Shown: piece after piece, positions 11,600-46,915 of the stretch
Layout of the letters: every line of letters begins with the position of its first letter
Position numbering within the stretch: the stretch's first letter is position 1
The notes under the pieces: model-generated
Told to the model about the DNA's origin: nothing
Seen by the model: the letters and a program-made list of their open reading frames with translations, nothing else
The model's database searches: none
Made by a program: the position numbers and the translations under genes
Assembly (NCBI RefSeq): GCF_032062105.1
Contig: NW_026919438.1
Location: forward strand, 1-64,000
Direction: 5' to 3'
DNA length: 64,000 nucleotides
DNA from: Saccostrea cucullata
Taxonomy: Eukaryota

Positions 11600-13047
11600 A
11601 TGGAACAAACTACGTATTCACCTAGAGATATGGAATTGACCGGAGACGCGAGTGATAGTCCTATAGCTGAAACACCAAGAAGTGCGAGGAATATTCCGAG
11701 AAGGGAATATGGTTCATCAGCAAGACGAAATTTAATGGTGAATTTTAATGAGGCGGAGAACGTTAATTCGCCTATTCATGCAAGTACTCCTGCATGTTCA
11801 GAGCCGGACCAACAGACCGATTTTAATCAGGAATCCAGTGAAAGCGAAACTTCACAATGGAAAAACTTCATGTGTTTATGGGGTTTGGTATTTCTGGCAG
11901 GAACTGTAGGTTTATACCTTTTGTATAAATATTTCCCAGGATATATGCTGCTATGCCTAACACGGGAATTTCTGATGACAGGAACACTGGCAATCTTGTG
12001 CGTTATACTTATTAGTATTATTTGCAAGCTGGCATTTAGAGATGATCTTGTAAGTGGGCGCAACAGAAACACAGAAAGGAATTTAACATCAAGGACCCCT
12101 ATACCACGACGAACTCCAAGTCTCTCGCCAGGCGTTAACCAGAATGTAATGTCAGGTGTTCAACCCTCCCTATCTAGGGTTCCCAATACAAGGAATACAC
12201 CAGCGCAACAGATAAATGTGAAAAGAACATTTAAGGGAGATGGCACAGATATTTGGAGTGAATACATACGATATTTTGAAAATATTTCAGAACTAAATGG
12301 CTGGGATAATGACAGAAAACGAAAAGTATTTTTCACAGTGTTGCGGGGACAGGCAGAAACATTCTGTTACGGATTATCCGATTCCGAGCGGAGCGACTGG
12401 AAACTGTTAACAGAGTCAATGAACCGGAGATTTGGTCACATGGCTATGAAAGAGAGCTACATTACGGAAGCAAAGTTGCGATTTAAGAAGCATGGCGAGA
12501 CTTTCCGAGATTTTGGACAAGCTATCCAAGATTTATACAGACGAGCTTATCCGGAAAGCAGGGAATATGTACAGGAAGCTAGTCTCAAGACTTTCCTTGA
12601 CAACTGTAGTGAATCAGGAGTTTTGTTTAGCTGTTAAGAGAACACGACCAAAGACTATTGATGAAGCAGTTACAGCAGCAATGCAGGAAGAGTGCATTAG
12701 ACTCACAGAGAACCGGAAACCTAGAGATCAAAGGATCATGAAACCCCCAGTTTACCAGGTATGGTCAAATTCTACTAAAACCGGAAATTAAGACGGATAT
12801 GCTAGAGCCACAGGATACAGTCCAGAGACGGTACTATAACAACAATAATAGTGTGACGACAGGTACGAATTATCAAGCGAGGGACAAGAAATTGTGCTAT
12901 CATTGTAACTCAAGTCAACACTTAATCCGAGATTGTCCAAAGAAAGCAACTTCAAAGAAAATGCAAAACACAGGTGCGACTTTCCAAAAGAGGAAGAATC
13001 AGGAAACACCCGAGCAGCAGTTAAACGACATTCGACCGAGGCAGTAG
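11600..13047 (+). pseudogene. gag: Gag with N-terminal hydrophobic (TM-like) pair, capsid-like domain and CCHC knuckle; two frameshifts (~12620, ~12790)
   Basis: FKGDGTDIWSEYIRYFENISELNGW...LRGQA capsid-like region; RPKTIDEAVTAA in the second frame; CYHCNSSQHLIRDC knuckle in the third frame. Confidence 0.85.
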
Positions 13048-16000
13048 GCCGTGTGTCGGTCACAATGCACCACAGGCCTAATACATTGGATTTGCAACAT
13101 TCCGTTTCAGAGAACAGGGAGACTAGAAATGAAGCTAAATTGCTTGAGAAGCTTTCTGTGGTAAACTCCGAGGAAGGAGAATCTCCAGTTTTTAATAAGG
13201 AAGCGGGTGTAAATGATGCAACGCACATCGGTGTAAACTCCAAGCAGGGCGAGGACCGGAAATTTAAGGTTAAAGGATCCTGTGACATGAGGATCAATGG
13301 ATGGGTAGAAGGGACTCCCCTTGAATGGAAAATCGATACAGGTGCGGTTAATACCTTTATTACGGAAGATACATTTTACAATATCTTACCGGAAATTAGA
13401 CCTGTGCTGGAACGCGTGCAGAAGAAATTTCACATAGCTGATGGAAATGAATTACAGATTCTAGGGACTGCAAAGATGATTTTAAGTTTTGGAGAAAAAG
13501 ACGTTTTATTTCGTGTTTTTGTCGGAGGAGTTAAGTGCAATCTCCTGGGACAGGATTTCATGAGACAATTTAAGTGCAACTGGGATTACAGTGAAAATTC
13601 GTTGATGTTAAATTTTGATTCGTACAATCAAGGAGGAGATTTCAGTCATAGAACTTTGCGGGTTTTGTCCATAGAGGATTGTGTTATACCCGGGCGACAT
13701 GAAGCTTTGATTAAAACTAGGATACGATGCACGGAAAATCTTGGTGATGGAATCTTATTGCCGATTAAGCAGTTCATGCATGTTTATGGATTAATGATTG
13801 CGCATGCTCTTGTAAACGCTGACTTAAAGGAAGTGTTTGTGCGTGTATTTAATCAGTGTGATAACGATATTTTGGTGAAAAAGGACACAGATGTAGCACT
13901 GTTTTCACCTGTGAAATATATTAGTGAACATATTCATGAACAAGGAGTATTTGATGTAGATTTTAAAAGGAAATCTGAGGATTTGCCGGAACATCTAAAG
14001 AAGTTGTATTCAGAGGGATGTGAACATTTAACAGAGGAAGAAAGTATTACTTTCAAGGAATTTTTAATGGAATTCAAAGGAGCATTTGCTGACCCGAACC
14101 AACCAATGGAGCGTGCTAATTTTGGAGAGCATTGCATTAAATTGAAAAATGAATCGCCGTTTAAGGAACCACCCAGGCGAGTCCCTATATTTAAAAGGGA
14201 AATACTGGACACGGAAGTTCGGAATTTTGAGAAGCATGGACTTATAGAGGAGTCTATTAGCCCTTGGTCATCACCCCTTGTACTGGTGCAGAAAAAGGAC
14301 AAAAGCTGGAGAGTGTGCGTAGACTATAGGAAACTCAACGCTCAAACAATTAAGGATGCTTATCCCATTCCAAGGATTGCCGATAATTTAGATTCATTGG
14401 CGGGATCTAAATGGTTTACTTCATTGGATTTAAACATGGTATACCATCAGATTCCAATGTCGGAGAGTGACAAGGAAAAGACTGCTTTTGCAACACCACG
14501 TGGAGGATTGTACCAGTACCGAGTTATGCCTTTTGGACTATGTAACGCGCCTGCAACTTTTCAGCGTGTTATTGAGAGAGCATTACAAGGACTACAGTGG
14601 CATATAACAGTACTTTACTTGGACGATATAATTGTGACTGGTCGAGATTTCTCAGGTCATCTGAAAAACTTACGACAAGTGCTCGATCGACTACGGCAAG
14701 CAAACTTGAAGCTTAAAGCGAAAAAGTGCAAATTCTTTCAAAAGGAAGTGATATTCCTCGGACATATTGTGTCAGAAAACGGTGTTAAAACTGATCCGGC
14801 GAAAACTAGAGCTGTCGAGGAATGGAAATCACCAGAGAATGTATCTGAATTAAGGAGTTTCTTAGGACTTGTGTCATATTACAGGAAATTCATCAAAAAC
14901 TTTGCCGAAATAGCAAAATGTTTACATGCACTTACAAGTAAAAATTCTAAATGGGAATGGATGAATGAATGTGAAAATGCATTTCAAATGCTGAAATCAA
15001 AACTAGTGACTGCTCCCATACTAGGATATCCAGATACGGATGGAGGTGTATTTATTCTAGACACTGATGCTAGCAACAACGCAATTGGAGCTGTTCTGTC
15101 ACAAATTCAAGACGACAAGGAAATAGTTATTGAGTACGCTAGCCGAACTTTGAATAGTGCAGAGAGAAATTACTGCGTTACTCGGAAAGAAATGCTAGCG
15201 CTTGTGTATTTTATAAAGCATTTCAAACATTATTTGCTCGGGCGGGAGTTCATTCTTAGAACTGACCACGGATCATTAGTGTGGCTGCACAAATTTCGGG
15301 AGCCAGATGGACAAGTAGCGAGATGGCTTCAACAACTGGGACCATACGTATTTCGCATTGTGCATAGACCAGGTAAACGCCATGGAAATGCTGACGCATT
15401 ATCCAGAATCAGTGACAGTTTAATCTGTAAACAATGCAAGCGCTACATTCACGAAGAATCGACAGAAGAAACTTTCACTCATGTAGACGAATTAAGAAAA
15501 CTATGTGAATCCCCGGATTGCTACAAACAGAACACAGAAGTTTTAGATATCGGATGTTTGTTATATCCCGGAAGTTATCCGAATCCGGATGCGTGTCAAG
15601 TAGAATCAACAAATGAAAACAGTAAAACGGCTAGGCGTAAGAAAGTCAAAAACAGACCCCCTCCAGCGAGGCAACGGAAACAACCAACAGAGTCTCTGAC
15701 AGTTGAAAATATACGTAAGCGCCAACACGAAGATCATGAGATGTCTGAACTACTGCGCTTAAAGGAAAAATTGGATTCTGTGAAACCTGCGATAAGTTCT
15801 ATTTCTCATACCAGTTTTGAGTTCAAATTCTGGTATTCTAGGTGGGAAATGTTAACAGTTGATCGTGGTTTACTATGTTACCGGTGGATAGAAAAAGACA
15901 GTGAAACACTTAAAATATGTATTCCCAGGACTTTACGTGACAGTGTAATGTGGTATTTACATGATTCAAAAACTGCCGGACATATGGGAATTAGGAGGAC

Positions 16001-17261
16001 TGTTTCAAAGTTAATGAATAGTCAGTACTACTGGCCACAGCTGAAGCTATATGCTCAAGATTATGTATCGTCATGCGATATTTGCGAAGAGAGGAAAAAT
16101 CCAACAAGGAAGAAGCGATCTTACATGAAGACGTATTTAAGTGGTGACAGGTTCCATAGAATAGCCGCGGATATTGCAGGACCATTTCAGAAATCAGAAA
16201 ATGGATACTTGTACATATTAGTCGTCGCTGATTATTCTACTAAATTTTGTGAAATTTATCCCTTACGTGATATGGAAGCTGAAACTGTGGCAGAAACATT
16301 ATTCAAAGGTTGGATTAAACGATACGGATGTCCGTTAGAAATACACTCTGATCAAGGTAGACAGTTTGAAAGTCAACTATTTCAAGAAATGTGCAGATTA
16401 CTTCAGATCAACAAAACACGGACAACTGCTTACCATCCGCAGTCCGACGGGATGGTAGAGCGATTAAACCGAACTATAAAGGAAATGTTATCGAAATACA
16501 TTTCAGCTCATCAGACAGACTGGGACAAGTACATAGACGGGATCGTTCTGGCCTATAATAGTACACCCCATGAAACAACGACTATATCTCCGTATAGAAT
16601 GGTGTTCGGTACAGAGCCCTCACTACCCTTAGATGTTATGACTACAGAATTAACCGAAGAAGAACCAGTTCGGAAAAATGATTCGGAATATGTGAGAAAC
16701 TTGGAAAGTGAACTATATTTTGTGCACAATCTTGCGAGAGAAGTTACAGGAAAATTATCGCAAAGACAAAAACATTATTATGACAGAAATGTTTGTAATG
16801 TGAATTATGACATTGGAGATAAAGTGAGGCGAAATCAACGCCAAATTATTACAGGGACGAAAGCAAAACTAGCAAGGAACTGGACAGGGCCATGGTTTAT
16901 TGTGAAAAGACTGAGCGATACGCTTTATCAAATTCAACATTCCAAAAACTCCAAGCCTGTGATAGTGCACGCCGACAATATCAAACCATACAGGGGGAAT
17001 AAACAATTGCGCCCAGTTCCTGAATCCGAATATACAACTGGCGAGACAGCAGGTGCCCCGCGACGTCGCGTGCCAGCTGCGAGAGAGAGACCAATGACCA
17101 AACGATTGAAGTTACCGCCAGAGCCGCGACCCGAGACTGTCACAGCGGAACAGTCACATGCCGACAGCCAATCAGAAGCCGTCATTAGAACAACACGACT
17201 TGGGAGAGTTATAAAAAGACCACTTCGGTACCAGACTGACCATTCTCCAGATGATTTGTGA
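12933..17261 (+). CDS. pol: Pol polyprotein: aspartic protease, dUTPase-like insert, RT, RNase H, integrase
   Basis: IDTGA (protease); CVDYRKLN, MPFGLCNAPATFQR, YLDD (RT); TDAS, TDH, NADALSR (RNase H); HHCC, ADIAGP, SDQG, VERLNRT (integrase); open for 1442 codons. Confidence 0.97.
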   Translation: MSKESNFKENAKHRCDFPKEEESGNTRAAVKRHSTEAVGRVSVTMHHRPNTLDLQHSVSENRETRNEAKLLEKLSVVNSEEGESPVFNKEAGVNDATHIGVNSKQGEDRKFKVKGSCDMRINGWVEGTPLEWKIDTGAVNTFITEDTFYNILPEIRPVLERVQKKFHIADGNELQILGTAKMILSFGEKDVLFRVFVGGVKCNLLGQDFMRQFKCNWDYSENSLMLNFDSYNQGGDFSHRTLRVLSIEDCVIPGRHEALIKTRIRCTENLGDGILLPIKQFMHVYGLMIAHALVNADLKEVFVRVFNQCDNDILVKKDTDVALFSPVKYISEHIHEQGVFDVDFKRKSEDLPEHLKKLYSEGCEHLTEEESITFKEFLMEFKGAFADPNQPMERANFGEHCIKLKNESPFKEPPRRVPIFKREILDTEVRNFEKHGLIEESISPWSSPLVLVQKKDKSWRVCVDYRKLNAQTIKDAYPIPRIADNLDSLAGSKWFTSLDLNMVYHQIPMSESDKEKTAFATPRGGLYQYRVMPFGLCNAPATFQRVIERALQGLQWHITVLYLDDIIVTGRDFSGHLKNLRQVLDRLRQANLKLKAKKCKFFQKEVIFLGHIVSENGVKTDPAKTRAVEEWKSPENVSELRSFLGLVSYYRKFIKNFAEIAKCLHALTSKNSKWEWMNECENAFQMLKSKLVTAPILGYPDTDGGVFILDTDASNNAIGAVLSQIQDDKEIVIEYASRTLNSAERNYCVTRKEMLALVYFIKHFKHYLLGREFILRTDHGSLVWLHKFREPDGQVARWLQQLGPYVFRIVHRPGKRHGNADALSRISDSLICKQCKRYIHEESTEETFTHVDELRKLCESPDCYKQNTEVLDIGCLLYPGSYPNPDACQVESTNENSKTARRKKVKNRPPPARQRKQPTESLTVENIRKRQHEDHEMSELLRLKEKLDSVKPAISSISHTSFEFKFWYSRWEMLTVDRGLLCYRWIEKDSETLKICIPRTLRDSVMWYLHDSKTAGHMGIRRTVSKLMNSQYYWPQLKLYAQDYVSSCDICEERKNPTRKKRSYMKTYLSGDRFHRIAADIAGPFQKSENGYLYILVVADYSTKFCEIYPLRDMEAETVAETLFKGWIKRYGCPLEIHSDQGRQFESQLFQEMCRLLQINKTRTTAYHPQSDGMVERLNRTIKEMLSKYISAHQTDWDKYIDGIVLAYNSTPHETTTISPYRMVFGTEPSLPLDVMTTELTEEEPVRKNDSEYVRNLESELYFVHNLAREVTGKLSQRQKHYYDRNVCNVNYDIGDKVRRNQRQIITGTKAKLARNWTGPWFIVKRLSDTLYQIQHSKNSKPVIVHADNIKPYRGNKQLRPVPESEYTTGETAGAPRRRVPAARERPMTKRLKLPPEPRPETVTAEQSHADSQSEAVIRTTRLGRVIKRPLRYQTDHSPDDL
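13020..13061 (+). promoter_or_regulatory. Candidate -1 ribosomal frameshift signal (gag-pol)
   Basis: G_TTA_AAC in the gag frame at 13020-13026, 7-nt spacer, stem GACCGA (13034-39)/TCGGTC (13056-61); pol is -1 relative to the gag C-terminal frame. Confidence 0.6.
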
Positions 17262-18030
17262 ATATTGTGGGTGTGTGTTTTCGACAAATAGTCACTTGTA
17301 CCAGCATCAACGCGAACAACATAGAAGTGATTTGAATGTTATTAAATGTGAATATTGCCAAAAACTCTTTACTAGAAAATCAAATCTTAAAAGACATGTT
17401 AAAAACGTCCATAAGTTAGACGAGGACTTCATCAATGAGGCCTTAAATCCCCCGCGGAAGAAGATTCAACGACACAGCTTCATGGAGACCCGGAAACCGG
17501 TGTACGTTATGAGTGACTTTTATGAGGACATTTCCTCCGATGAGGAAGAGATGCATTATGCTGAGACTGCGCAGCCACTCGTTAGGGATTCATATCCGGA
17601 CTTAGACATCATTTCAGTGAATTCGGAAGACTTGCCGGAAGTAGATGACGCTTTTGTTAGTGAAATTCTGGGCGACATAGAAGAGGAAGAAACGTGTGCG
17701 CGACCAACAGAAGAATCTCTCGAGTCACCAGACGTGAGCGAAGCCGCGAACTCGTCATCAGAGGACAGTGATATGTATGACATGGACGATAACAACAATC
17801 GCGTAAGTGTCGAGACGTCAACCATATGCCTGGTGATGAAGAAGACGATTCGGACTAATCCTGACGGCACCGAGGAGATTAATCGCGAATCTCAAATTAT
17901 CTACTCAGAGAACGTAAATCCAGAGGAAGTAGACTTTCGTGATCTTGCCGAGGAGATTCTGGATGAGGTTCCGCGACACCTAGCGCCGAGTGCCCGTGTG
18001 CGGATAGTAAAGGGAGATTTGTCCTTGTGA
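17251..18030 (+). CDS. Gypsy ORF3: two C2H2 zinc fingers, basic NLS-like patch and long acidic region (259 aa)
   Basis: CEYC-x12-H-x4-H twice, PRKK, then a D/E/S-rich tract; lies between pol and the PPT, overlapping the end of pol; homologue at 44782. Confidence 0.85.
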   Translation: MICEYCGCVFSTNSHLYQHQREQHRSDLNVIKCEYCQKLFTRKSNLKRHVKNVHKLDEDFINEALNPPRKKIQRHSFMETRKPVYVMSDFYEDISSDEEEMHYAETAQPLVRDSYPDLDIISVNSEDLPEVDDAFVSEILGDIEEEETCARPTEESLESPDVSEAANSSSEDSDMYDMDDNNNRVSVETSTICLVMKKTIRTNPDGTEEINRESQIIYSENVNPEEVDFRDLAEEILDEVPRHLAPSARVRIVKGDLSL

Positions 18031-18457: not shown

Positions 18458-18736
18458 TGTAGCGAATTATTATGTAACTATGATTTGTTTATATAACATT
18501 GCTCCTCGCGAGCAATGGGTTTTTGATTACATTGCATTGCTCCTCGCGAGCAATGGGTTTTATGTATAAATATAGGAGCGATTTTAGACAGTTAGTCAGT
18601 CAGTTTTTCATATTCATTACGATCACTTCGGACAATTTTTATTTGGATTTTTATACTTACTGTGTTTATGTTATCGTGGATTTTAAAATGTGAATAAACC
18701 GTAAACTTGATTACTTGCGTATCATTTCAAGAATAT
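18458..18736 (+). repeat. 3' LTR, missing the last 64 bp
   Basis: Matches 9520-9798 with 4 substitutions. Confidence 0.95.
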
Positions 18737-31411: not shown

Positions 31412-32057
31412 ATGTTACTTTATCAGTTGACAATTCCAAACAAGCCCCGGATGTCAAACATATTGAAGGTATTAAAATTAGGTATACAGATACGTCACAT
31501 TAATATCTAGGTCAAGTTTCGTTTTGGCTACGATCTCACCATTTTTGAAAGTTATGCCCCTTGGACTTAAAAAATTCCAATTATTTGCAGTTTCTGTTCA
31601 TTTCCTTCACAATTTGTGAAAAAGATTTATCAGATGAATATCTAGGACAAATTCGGTTTCGAGTACAATCGCGCCAAGTTATGCCCCTTGGACTTGGACA
31701 AATTCCAATTTCGGGGTAGGGGGCATAAGTGTTTTACAAACATCTCTTGTATTAATTATATCTTTTTAATTTGAATTAAGTTTATAAAAATTTAATTTAT
31801 TTTTGTATATTTCTTTTGTAGTTTTTGCCATCACAACTTTAGGAATGGACAACACGGACATTGTTAAAGCCATAAACACCACTATCGGTTCCATGCGCCG
31901 TGCTGTGAAAGAAAACCGACTAATCTAAGTAGATGTCCTGTATGAAGAAGGGAGGGCATATTGCTTTGCTGCTGTCCGTCGGTTCATTTTGTTTCCGTTC
32001 ATTTTCACAATCATTACACACACTGAATTGAAATTTGGTTTACATGTTTGTCAGGTA

Positions 32058-41720: not shown

Positions 41721-42574
41721 ATTCTGACCTCAATTAAGTGTATAAATAATGGACTAACAATTAGTATGAAAAACGTTAGTAAGCGTTTGTCTCAATGATA
41801 AATGTATTTGCTGACAAGGTCATTGTATCGACCACAAAATTGACGAAATGATGATTATCGATGAAGGGACCCCCTTTAGGTTGAAAAGAGGTTGTGCAGT
41901 GACCCTTTCACTTTCTGGTTCAGCGGAGGTTTGATTGCATGGACATACACTTATTCTTCCCAATCCTGACATCTGGAATAACACGAGATATTTGTAAAAT
42001 ACTTATGCTCCCCTCCCCCCAAATTGGAATTTTTCCAAGTCAAAGGGGCAAAACTCTGTCAAAAATGGCATGATTGTACCCAAAACAGAAGTTGACCTAA
42101 ATATTCATCTGATAAATCTGTATACTAAATTTCATCTCCGCATGTGCAATGGTTGTGAAGAAAATGAACGGAAACTGCAAATAATTGGAATTTTTGTAAG
42201 TCCAAAGGGCATAACGCTGTCAAAAATGGTACAATCATACCTAAAACAGAACTTGACCTAGATATTAATGTGATTTATCTATACAAAATTTCAATCACTT
42301 TGAAAAAAATATAATTGATTTGGATCTGTTATTACTAAATGTATTGAGCACTATTCTGAAATTTAATGTTGTAACTCATTGGATATAATATTTAAAAGTG
42401 AAATGTTACTGTGCATTTTAATATGTACATTTTATTTTTTGTTTTAATTAAAAACATACAAACTGTTCTTATCGTGGTCACCACGACGCCCTACCAGGGC
42501 CCAGAATCTGTTTGTCTAAAACAAATAAATAATTTACTATCACTTAATTAAATATCACTAGTCTTTTGACTGTA

Positions 42575-44156: not shown

Positions 44157-46282
44157 TGTAGCGAATTATTACGTAACAATGATTTGTTTATATAACATTG
44201 CTCCTCGCGAGCAATGGGTGTTTTGTTTACATTGCATTGCTCCTCGCGAACAATGGGTTTTATGTATAAATATGTGAGGAAAGTGAACTATATTTTGTGC
44301 ACAATCTTGCGAGAGAAGTTACAGGAAAATTTTCGCTAAGACAAAAACATTATTATGACAGAAATGTTCGTAATGTGAATTAAGACATTGGAGATAAAGT
44401 GAGGCGAAAGCAACGCCAAATTATTACAGAGACGAAAGCAAAACTAGCAAGAAACTGGACAGGGCCATGGTTTATTGTGTTAAGACTGAGCAGTCGCAAC
44501 CCGTCATAGTGCACGCCGACAACATCAAACCCTAGCGCGGAGATCAACAGCAGCCCCACTACACAACCAGCGAGACAGCGGAATACACGGGTGGCGAGAC
44601 ACCAGATGGTCAACAACTGCACTCGTCTGGACCAGGCCGGCGGCGTTTCAAGTTACCGCTAGCTCCACCCCCGAGAACAGACAATTCGGAAGCTGACCAA
44701 TCAGAACCAATAATGAAGATGACCCGAAGAGGACGGACTATAAGAAGCCCCATCCGTTTCAGAAATTAAAACATTCGACAAATGTTGTGCGAGACTTGCG
44801 GAAAGACATTCAGCACAAGCAGTAATCTTCGCCAGCATACCAGAGAGAAACGTAGTGATCATGTAAATAGTTTACTGTGTAGTTATTGCCAGAGACCCTT
44901 TTTGCGAAAATTTAATTTGAAAAGACACTTGACTTCAGTTCACAAACTGAATAGTAAACATTTAGAAGCAGCCATGTCCTCAAAGCGGAGACGAGTCGAG
45001 CGTGATGTCTTCTTTGAAACCAGGAAACCGGTGTACGTTATGAGTGACTTTTATGAGGACATTATCTCCGATGAGGAAGAGATGCATTATGCTGAGACTG
45101 CGCAGCAACTCGTTAGGGATTCATATCTGGACTTAGACATCATCTAAGTGAATTCGTAAGACTTGCCGAAAGTAGATGACACTTTTGTTAGTGAAATTCT
45201 CGGCGACATAGAAGAGGAAGAAACGTGTGTGCGACCAACAAAAGAATCTCTCGAGTCACCAGACGTGAGCGAAGCCGCGAATTCGTCATCAGAGGACGGT
45301 ATTATGCATAATATGGACGATAACAACAATTGCATAAGTGTCGATAACCATATGCCTGGTGATGAGGAAGACGATTCGGACTAATCCTGACGGTTCCGAG
45401 GAATCGCGAATCTAAAATTATCAACTCAGAGAACGTGAACCCAGAGGAGTAGAATTTCTTGATCTTGCCGATGAGATTCTGAATGAGGTTCCGCGACACC
45501 TAGCGCTGAATGCCCGCGTGTGGGTAGTAAAGGGAGATTTGTCCTTGTGAACAATGTATATTCGTGAAACAAATTTGAGGCCATACTGAAAAAGTTGTGA
45601 ACTCTAACAAAAGACTTGTGGTCTATTAACAAGCTTTTATGTATATAATATTTAATTATTTTGACTTTGATTTTTATTATGTTTTAATGTCATGTTTGTA
45701 AATATTTTTTTTTTTGTGTGCTTTATTTGTCCGAAGGTGATTTATTGTTTACGTAGACTAGGTTTGCTAGGTGTAAGTTAACATGTTCACTGTTTCAACA
45801 AAATAATTTTATTATGGATTGTGTAGTAAAAATTAACTGATTTAGAAAGAAATAATTGTTTATATATAGCTAACGTTTAATTGTTTATGTATTTCCTTTA
45901 AATTTTACCATCATGTTTAACTTCAAAAAAATAATTTTAGTTGTATATTGTTTAATCATTTTGAACGGAGTTTAAAACTTAAGTGGGGGGGAGTTGTAGC
46001 GAATTACAAAGTAACAATGATTTGTTTATATAACATTGCTTCTCGCGAGCAATGGGTTTTATGTATAAATATAGGAGCCATTTTAGAAAGTCAGTCAGTC
46101 AGTTTTTGATATTCATTACGATCACTTCGGACAATTTTTATTTGGATTTGTTATATACTTACTGTGTTTATGTTATTGTGGATTTTAAAATGTGAATAAA
46201 CTGTAAACTTGATTACTTGCGTATCACTTCAAGAATATTCATTGGGAGAAAAGGAAAACACTGAGAGTTATTCCCCTTAGAC
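44157..46282 (+). mobile_element. Internally deleted derivative of the same Gypsy family (partial 5' LTR, integrase tail, ORF3, PPT, 3' LTR)
   Basis: LTR start at 44157 joins pol position ~16687 at AATAT (~44269-44273); ORF3 homologue; 3' UTR closely matches 18030-18457; 3' LTR 45995-46282. Confidence 0.93.
44782..45549 (+). pseudogene. ORF3 homologue (C2H2 x2 plus acidic region), with stops and frameshifts
   Basis: MLCETCGKTF...CSYCQRPFLRKFNLKRHLTSVH; from ETRKPVY onward near-identical to 17484-18030; stop at 45145-45147. Confidence 0.85.
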
Positions 46283-46915
46283 TCATCTGACTAATCTGTA
46301 TACTAAATTCCATTTCAATATGTGCAACCTCTCCAAAGAAAATGAACGGAAAGTGCAAAAATATGGATTTTTTTCTAAGTCCAAGGGGCATAACTCTGTC
46401 AATTATGGTGCGATCATACCTAAAACAGAACTTGACCTAGATATTCATCTGACTAATCTGTATACTAAATTCCATTTTAATATGTGCAACTTCTTTAAAG
46501 AAAATGAGCGGAAACTGCAAATAATTGGAATTTTTCTAAGTCCAAGGGGCATAACTCTGTCAATTATGGTGTGATCGTACCCAAAACAAAACTTGACCTA
46601 GATATTCTTCTGACTAATCTGTATACTAAATTCCATTTCAATATGTGTAACCTCTCCAAAGAAAATGAGCGGAAACTGCAAACAATTGGAATTTTTTTAA
46701 GTCCAAGGGGCATAACTCTGTCAATTATGGTGCGACCGTACCCGAAACAGAACTTGACCTAGATATTCATGTGATATACTTGTATACCAAATTTCATATC
46801 AGTATGTGCAATGGTCATGAAGAAAATGAGCGGAAACTAAATGGACCGACAGACCGACCGACCGACAGACAGCAGCAAAGCAATATGCCCTCCCTTCCTC
46901 GAAGGGGGGCATAAT
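46283..46915 (-). repeat. HINE-like element with ~163-bp tandem units (same family at 41980-42290)
   Basis: AAGTCCAAGGGGCATAACTCTGTC recurs at ~46377, 46538 and 46699; (GACC/GACA)n and ATGCCCTCCCTTC-ctc-GAAGGGGGGCAT hairpin. Confidence 0.7.

Follow-up and report, generated by a model that had tools for sequence, protein, structure and literature searches.

The window analysed here is a stretch of 64,000 nucleotides of the Saccostrea cucullata contig NW_026919438.1. It contains a full Ty3/gypsy element between 9520 and 18736, with LTRs 98.6% alike over 279 nt, and a second, incomplete copy at 44157-46282 (Table 1). Among named proteins, those of Saccostrea cucullata come closest (94% in the matched part), as expected if the host is an oyster. 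Membership of Ty3/Gypsy is indicated by the PR-RT-RH-IN order, by TG...CA LTR pairs and by the presence of PBS and PPT, while 4-bp target duplications are visible at several full copies. In the Pfam search of 12909-17258, the protease match is of 19.4 bits, below the curated cut-off of 28.2. An insertion that carries repeats and has short inverted termini (~9868-11048) displaces the PBS of the full element from its 5' LTR, and related repeats are found at 2480-2920 and 5650-6900. Near its N-terminus Gag has two strongly hydrophobic segments of 19 residues, ~35 residues apart, in 9/9 elements examined (window 11600-12100, L114, L118-L120, L122-L124 and L126), a possible membrane anchor that would be unusual for an env-less element. 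The C-terminus of the pol product finishes in most families with a conserved basic motif, TRxGRxxxxPxR[FY] (17190-17235; 44722-44765), preceded by poorly conserved sequence; we take this ending to resemble, possibly, a chromatin-binding tail.

Table 1. Features of the two Ty3/gypsy copies in the window
Feature	Position	Strand	Remarks
Full element: 5' LTR, family A, TG...CA	9520..9862	+	end 9862 from matches to other copies
Two palindromes, CATTGCTC-n5-GAGCAATG	9559-9579, 9597-9617	+	just 5' of TATA; predicted ORF3 sites
PBS-like TGG motif	11057..11075	+	same motif directly behind LTR in other copies
gag	11600..13047	+	three frames (broken); two hydrophobic segments near N-terminus; terminal CCHC knuckle
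pol, open frame of 1450 aa	12909..17261	+	Pfam: protease, RT, RNase H, integrase, in Ty3/gypsy order
ORF3, 259 aa	17251..18030	+	two C2H2 fingers (17257-17322, 17347-17412), then basic patch, KPVY...YEDISSDE, acidic disordered middle, conserved beta-beta-alpha C-terminal domain
3' LTR	18458..18736 (cut short at 18736)	+	preceded by polypurine tract; palindromes 18497-18517, 18535-18555
Second copy: family-A 5' LTR stub	44157..44273	+	96-97% to A LTRs; ends at the TATA box
Palindromes in the stub	44196-44216, 44235-44255	+	
Family-A integrase tail	44278..44491	+	96% to A; 63-65% to B copies having the region
Family-B segment	44492..45022	+	91-94% to 12 B copies, 59-63% to 13 A copies; pol tail, ORF3 start 44782, fingers 44788-44853 and 44878-44943, basic patch
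B-to-A crossover interval	45023..45029	+	7 nt common to both parents in the alignment
Family-A ORF3 tail, 3' UTR, polypurine tract	45030..45994	+	~89-93% to most A copies
Family-A 3' LTR	45995..46282	+	one palindrome, 46034-46054

The second copy is a mosaic of two Ty3/gypsy families in the order A, B, A: a dead hybrid, in which a family-B segment lies inside one broken family-A copy. The initial annotation had described 44535..45020 as strongly diverged between closely matching flanks, and identity is indeed far from uniform along the copy, flipping from A to B and back in sliding windows. Windows of 50 bp starting between 44528 and 44953 are 86-98% identical to family B, against 46-76% for family A, and upstream of 44450 and downstream of 45028 identity to A is mostly 86-100%, with dips at indels. 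The foreign stretch is thus real; its start is at 44492, not 44535, its end falls in the 7 nt shared by both parents, and the A-like left flank, said to reach ~16990 of the full element, already ends at the equivalent of 16916. Likewise, recombination stands while the notion of an exchanged cassette does not, for what is seen is a crossover tract over pol tail and fingers rather than a unit of defined ends. The motifs quoted for the segment are all present (TRRGRTIRSPIRF as against TRLGRVIKRPLRY, two colinear fingers, KRRR), as is the substitution reported in finger 1, where the last zinc ligand, a His, reads Arg (codon 44851-44853).

Decay is visible throughout. PBS, gag and most of pol are absent, the LTR stub being fused to the integrase tail at ~44273/44278 through a 5-nt AATAT microhomology; 31 nt are absent relative to both parents at the left joint (44491/44492); in-frame stops interrupt the pol tail (near 44533) and ORF3 (45145), with later indels in the ORF3 tail. 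The final ~20 nt of the 3' LTR are absent, a tandem-repeat element starting there, and with the right end lost no target duplication is readable. That element, with units of ~162 bp (46283-46900), has related arrays at 31450-31750 and 42020-42300.

Searching the same genome with 44535-45020 gave 19 matches, of which 12 are other near-full-length copies at 91-94%; the matching stretch of the full element gave 31, with 12 others at 93-97%. The 12 B-type copies have an integrase only ~68% like that of the full family-A element (where the region is present), as well as their own ORF3 tail and their own LTR, and they therefore form a separate family, B. The proposal that families had recombined is borne out in this way, the donor having been found. 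The B-to-A joint is spanned by 1/33 matches, that is, by a single copy. Among 118 loci, 106 match a family reference and two match two families, the second copy and L079; in L079 the second match lies outside ORF3, which leaves the second copy as the sole finger-region mosaic among the 106. While B copies are 97.6% alike among themselves, it is 92-94% like them and has 21 private differences against nine unanimous B copies, the finger-1 Arg included, so that it is an older, decaying single insertion.

An assembly chimera might be suspected in a fragmented assembly (23,869 contigs) and a repeat-rich window. We give it practically no credence: private substitutions occur all along the copy, the parents are only ~60% alike in the segment, and two of the three joints recur in contigs from other samples. 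For the right joint, contigs come from two other studies, run X1 covering 44919-45095 with 6/177 differences and run X2 covering 44950-45095 with 4/146, when over the same spans 25-53 differences separate it from copies that are purely A or purely B. The 5' joint is spanned by one contig of run X5, and the left joint, 44491/44492, by none among the contigs listed. It is likely that the mosaic was made by template switching during reverse transcription. RNAs of A and B would have been co-packaged and RT would have switched templates twice, a further aberrant jump or a later deletion taking out PBS, gag and most of pol. Gene conversion after insertion would give an identical mosaic.

What, then, is the protein whose gene was cut by this exchange? 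Protein searches of the same genome gave 90 and 115 matches, and 80 stretches taken from it were sorted by eye into 12 families, A-L. LTR pairs are 99-100% identical in several of them, which indicates recent activity there. The layout of ORF3 is constant: two fingers separated by an unusual linker of 7-8 residues (longer in L), KPVY...YEDISSDE, an acidic disordered middle and a C-terminal domain. Pfam recognizes the two fingers as zf-C2H2 (41.5 bits, cut-off 25.2), the eight ligands are invariant in 13/13 aligned ORF3s, and pLDDT is ~90 over the fingers. No ORF3 match to an env family exceeds the Pfam cut-off and the sequence is by inspection acidic and soluble, so that these are not elements of the env-bearing (errantivirus) type. 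The KPVY...YEDISSDE stretch (17500-17545) hardly varies between families or in many of the mussel relatives and is sometimes duplicated; it has the look of a docking motif for a cofactor, dependent on phosphorylation. An AG stands directly 5' of the ORF3 ATG in families A, C and G, at most a hint of splicing; in three poly-A RNA runs a family-A copy collects 55-87 reads per run, on both strands, and no splice joint to ORF3 is found at this very low depth.

The C-terminal domain has 75 residues, for which the model (pLDDT 83) shows two strands followed by one helix. It belongs to no Pfam family in 13/13 members, and the fold search with its model gave nothing clear (best E 0.16 with Foldseek, best Z 2.5 with VIA). 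Prediction of a dimer gave a score of 0.02 that speaks neither for nor against one, in a run made without alignment and with the fold of the domain itself uncertain. A profile search with the domain retrieved 95 proteins among 1.84 billion. Twenty of them were looked up, and wherever their clusters include a named protein it comes from Saccostrea, Crassostrea virginica, Mytilus edulis or M. galloprovincialis; many have the same two-finger layout, known here from proteins alone. P0060 and P0067 are longer predictions in which the domain is followed by unrelated sequence, and these may be gene-model fusions or host-gene captures. An Atlas search with the homologue P0006 retrieved generic C2H2 clusters only. 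The seven loci from a metagenome scan were all dropped: four were host genes with many fingers, one was an unrelated gene with a single finger, in one no finger was recovered, and the last was a fragment of a finger where a contig ends.

Family L (L128, L097-L099, L101) is a distant gypsy lineage with the same type of ORF3, its pol being only 33-40% like that of A and its PBS different. In L098 and L101 an internal deletion has apparently joined the C-terminal domain and part of pol in a single open frame. Internally deleted derivatives recur in several families (L002, L003, L115, L116, L066, L094, L100), with ORF3 and LTR kept and parts of pol lost.

That ORF3 is old and under purifying selection, as the initial annotation had supposed, is borne out across the finger region, where synonymous sites are saturated: in 8/8 between-family pairs pS is 0.80-0.90 against a pN of 0.24-0.37. 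The C-terminal domain shows a similar pattern, and in the acidic middle pN is ~0.5 between families. Within four families, pN/pS is 0.16-0.52.

The LTRs of the 12 families have little sequence in common. In nine of them we find palindromes whose arms are 5 bp apart, and from the end of the proximal one it is 5-10 bp to the TATA box of the LTR; eight of the nine were located by a finder blind to the fingers, that of family I by eye. Their half-sites can be set beside the residues at helix positions -1, 3 and 6 (Table 2), with finger 2 on the inner triplet and finger 1 on the outer.

Table 2. Finger residues (helix -1/3/6) and LTR half-sites
Family	Finger 2	Finger 1	Half-site
A, B, C	RNR	TNQ	GAGCAA
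D	RNR	HNR	GAGCAT (one GAGGAT)
E	RNR	RNL	GAGCAA (one GAGCAG)
F	RNE	RNR	CAGGAG
G	RNK	NTQ	GAGCTG or TAGCTG
H	RNR	SAQ	GAGTGA
I	RSR	RNR	GGGGAG, GTGGAG, GAGGAG

Changes of residue and changes of base go together. Glu at position 6 of finger 2 in family F meets CAG-GAG, Lys at the same position in G meets GAG or TAG, and in I, with Ser at position 3 of that finger, the middle base is variable (GGG, GTG, GAG). Base 5 is A with Asn at position 3 of finger 1 in A-F and I, T in G (Thr) and G in H (Ala). The annotation had suggested that finger type might covary with LTR type; it does, across the other families from A to I, A and B being alike in both.

The rules scored were those of the C2H2 code for Arg-1/G, Asn3/A, His3/G, Arg6/G, Glu6/C and Lys6/G,T only, with Gln6 and Thr-1 of finger 1 in A/B/C left unscored. 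Arg-G contacts at -1 and +6, and the pairs QSNR/GAA and ISNR/GAT, are documented in the accessible text of one source (PMC2709573), and that of another has each finger covering three bases, read 3'-to-5', with exceptions (PMC12852955). With A/B/C collapsed to one, and with J, K and L, which have no palindrome, left out, there are seven independent units, all from one genome. For the blind-found sites the true pairing is the unique best of 5040 permutations, with 100/124 contacts, two wrongly picked sites included. On TATA-proximal sites only, 58/62 rule-bearing contacts agree, a score that includes the family I palindrome picked by eye and that is reached by 24/5040 permutations; 11 other combinations of register and order (whole-site shifts, reversed finger order) reach at most 34/62. 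Register and rule set were fixed after families A-G had been seen, and are blind only for H and I. For H, predicted before its LTR was read, GAG and 'not A' were right and the predicted C and T wrong; for I, likewise predicted in advance, the second triplet GAG was right in 4/4 half-sites and 'not A' in 3/4. The four proximal contacts that break the code are those of finger-1 Arg6 in D and finger-1 Arg-1 in E, each of which fits 1/4 half-sites. Genome-wide, the A/B/C palindrome pattern occurs 113 times, and its reversed control 0 times. A register that skips one base between the fingers (GAG-C-AAT) looks perfect for A/B/C and fails, likewise by eye, for D, E, F and I, and was set aside. The LTRs of J, K and L have, instead of a palindrome, 5-9 GGAG direct repeats on one strand, an enrichment equalled in 0-4 of 500 shuffles in a test devised post hoc. 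TGTTTAC/T motifs, presumably forkhead-like, are found just 5' of the palindromes in several families (window 9540-9600; LTRs A-E, G, H and J) and suggest that a co-factor of the host acts next to the sites predicted for ORF3.

Since the half-sites change with the finger residues much as the C2H2 code would have it, ORF3 is likely to be a self-targeted LTR regulator, and probably an activator. We put at about 0.6 the probability of the whole reading, in which the segment of family B came, likely by template switching, into a broken A copy, and in which its ORF3 is predicted to bind the palindromes of its own LTR promoter and likely to activate that promoter. Binding is the firmer part, being highly probable on the finger-to-site correspondence. 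Two ORF3 molecules would sit on each palindrome, and the fixed 5-bp spacer suggests a dimer, for which the conserved C-terminal domain is a candidate contact. Cross-reaction is predicted among families A, B and C, and none for F, G, H and I.

The palindromes could, to be sure, be sites for host factors, or hairpins, with ORF3 doing something else (integration targeting, RNA binding, acting as a decoy for zinc-finger repressors of the host) and the code match coming from chance and co-inheritance. Independent families are few and GAG is common to most; in D and in E one position disagrees with the code; no palindrome is present in J, K or L; and the forkhead-like motifs are next to several sites. 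We nevertheless hold this quite improbable, since co-inheritance cannot yield agreement with a code established outside these elements (Glu6/C in F; Arg-Asn-Arg/GAG in F and I), a single register and finger order fits, and the arms vary by family while the spacing to TATA is kept.

If ORF3 does bind, activation is likely, its sign resting on the acidic tract and the position of the sites only: the acidic middle would recruit the host transcription machinery beside TATA and create a positive feedback specific to each family. An ORF3 bound to its own palindromes might also repress or limit transcription, as in copy-number control, or block silencing rather than recruit the polymerase directly. 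Covariation of fingers and sites is equally expected there, the proximal site is near enough to TATA for occlusion, the YEDISSDE-type and hydrophobic-acidic conserved motifs could dock cofactors of either sign, and RNA levels of a family-A copy are low. Long acidic disordered tracts are, by contrast, typical of activators, and ORF3 has such a tract in its middle; duplicated sites 5' of TATA look like an activating element; and the keeping of ORF3 across saturated synonymous divergence fits a selfish benefit. Repression or its variants thus seem unlikely to us, and activation remains the sign that we prefer.

The initial annotation had gone further for the second copy, proposing that a swap of the finger segment alone is a route to new specificity and that this copy is such an innovation. 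The mosaic is real, and exchange among lineages has happened, as the disagreement between ORF3 and pol trees implies. The double crossover of the second copy, however, moved the fingers alone between families that share, in most copies, the helix -1/3/6 residues (T,N,Q; R,N,R) and the half-site GAGCAATG, so that no retuning is predicted. The copy is moreover unique and defective, with a zinc ligand lost, and no expanded lineage with mismatched finger and LTR-site families is seen among the 118 loci. We consider innovation of this kind very improbable.

Exchange between lineages would have followed another track. In the pol tree the groups B+D+I and C+E+H each have 100% bootstrap. Resolution is weak in the tree of ORF3, which nevertheless rejects the pol topology as a whole (AU p=0.001) as well as the clades B+D+I (p=0.001) and C+E+H (p=0.013), not A+F (p=0.079); pol in turn rejects A+B+C and F+I. 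Family L was part of the first RT plus integrase trees and is absent from this comparison and its AU tests. As the two trees reject each other's groupings, ORF3 has changed pol partners. In every multi-copy family the fingers match the site to the extent that the code can be read, which fits joint transfer of ORF3 and U3 in one crossover: U3 has the 3' end of the RNA as its template, and a single crossover between pol and ORF3 would therefore carry protein and site together and keep the pair matched. We lean towards a wider picture, that of a bivalve-wide, env-less Ty3/gypsy group with its own dimeric C2H2 activator and co-diverging sites, which would form orthogonal self-activation circuits, the ORF3-U3 block moving between pol backbones.

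Mollusc Ty3/Gypsy LTR retrotransposons have been surveyed, and 21 clades described in the text available (PMC6238403). The present elements resemble them in LTRs, PBS, PPT, CCHC gag and PR-RT-RH-IN pol, and differ by an extra 3' ORF with two C2H2 fingers; 'zinc' and 'ORF' have 0 matches in the main text of that survey. A third ORF between pol and 3' LTR, common to distant lineages (family L here), is also seen, in the accessible parts of two articles, in LTR retrotransposons with non-env ORF3 of the bdelloid GDSL, DEDDy and TM types (PMC5408684) and in env-carrying LTR elements (PMC13524379). Unlike these, the ORF3 described here is a predicted DNA-binding regulator, neither envelope nor enzyme, and 'zinc finger' and 'C2H2' have 0 matches in the available text of either source. 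A literature search, with Repbase/GyDB, subscription journals and supplements outside its scope, found no gypsy element described as having a zinc-finger ORF3 or a product that binds its own LTR.

Foamy virus Tas/Bel-1 and other transactivators of complex retroviruses are encoded by a 3' accessory ORF, combine DNA-binding and acidic parts and target their own LTR in a lineage-specific way. ORF3, a 3' ORF with fingers and an acidic middle directed at its own LTR, would act in a similar mode if our inference holds; it differs in using classical C2H2 fingers, readable by the code, and in being carried by an env-less retrotransposon, and Pfam searches of ORF3 gave no match to the Tas family. The VANC proteins of Arabidopsis VANDAL transposons recognize, in the text available, family-specific target motifs in their own element, protein and target co-evolving, and remove DNA methylation across a DNA transposon via tandem-repeat targets (PMC5735166). 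ORF3 is likewise encoded by a transposable element and predicted to recognize family-specific motifs within it; its carrier is an LTR retrotransposon rather than a VANDAL, with two palindromes at the core promoter. C2H2 proteins are otherwise known as a weapon of the host against LTR retrotransposons. As in the host C2H2/KRAB repressors of retroelements described in the accessible part of PMC4592553, the fingers of ORF3 are predicted to read LTR sequence, but ORF3 is encoded by the element and has only two fingers, a non-canonical linker and no KRAB. The available text of PMC13269885 mentions zinc fingers of the host only, and that of 10.64898/2026.08.24.746577 describes transposases activating cognate copies, with 0 matches for retrotransposon or LTR. 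By analogy, VANC and foamy-virus Tas would be the closest counterparts of a system that constitutes a new form of ORF3-bearing LTR retrotransposon, a zinc-finger ORF3 with matched LTR sites, and that makes a specific and testable regulatory prediction.

The mosaic itself is ordinary, yet it tells that recombination persists between families with only ~70% pol identity. LTR retrotransposons are generally held to depend on host factors for their transcription. If our reading is true, simple retrotransposons can run a promoter circuit of their own, and the coexistence of many related families in one genome, whether they cross-activate or not, would have an explanation. The natural series of matched finger/site pairs lends itself to direct tests of protein-DNA co-evolution. 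By analogy, these elements would be the retrotransposon counterpart of the complex-retrovirus transactivators, and a mirror image of the repression that hosts exert with their own zinc fingers.
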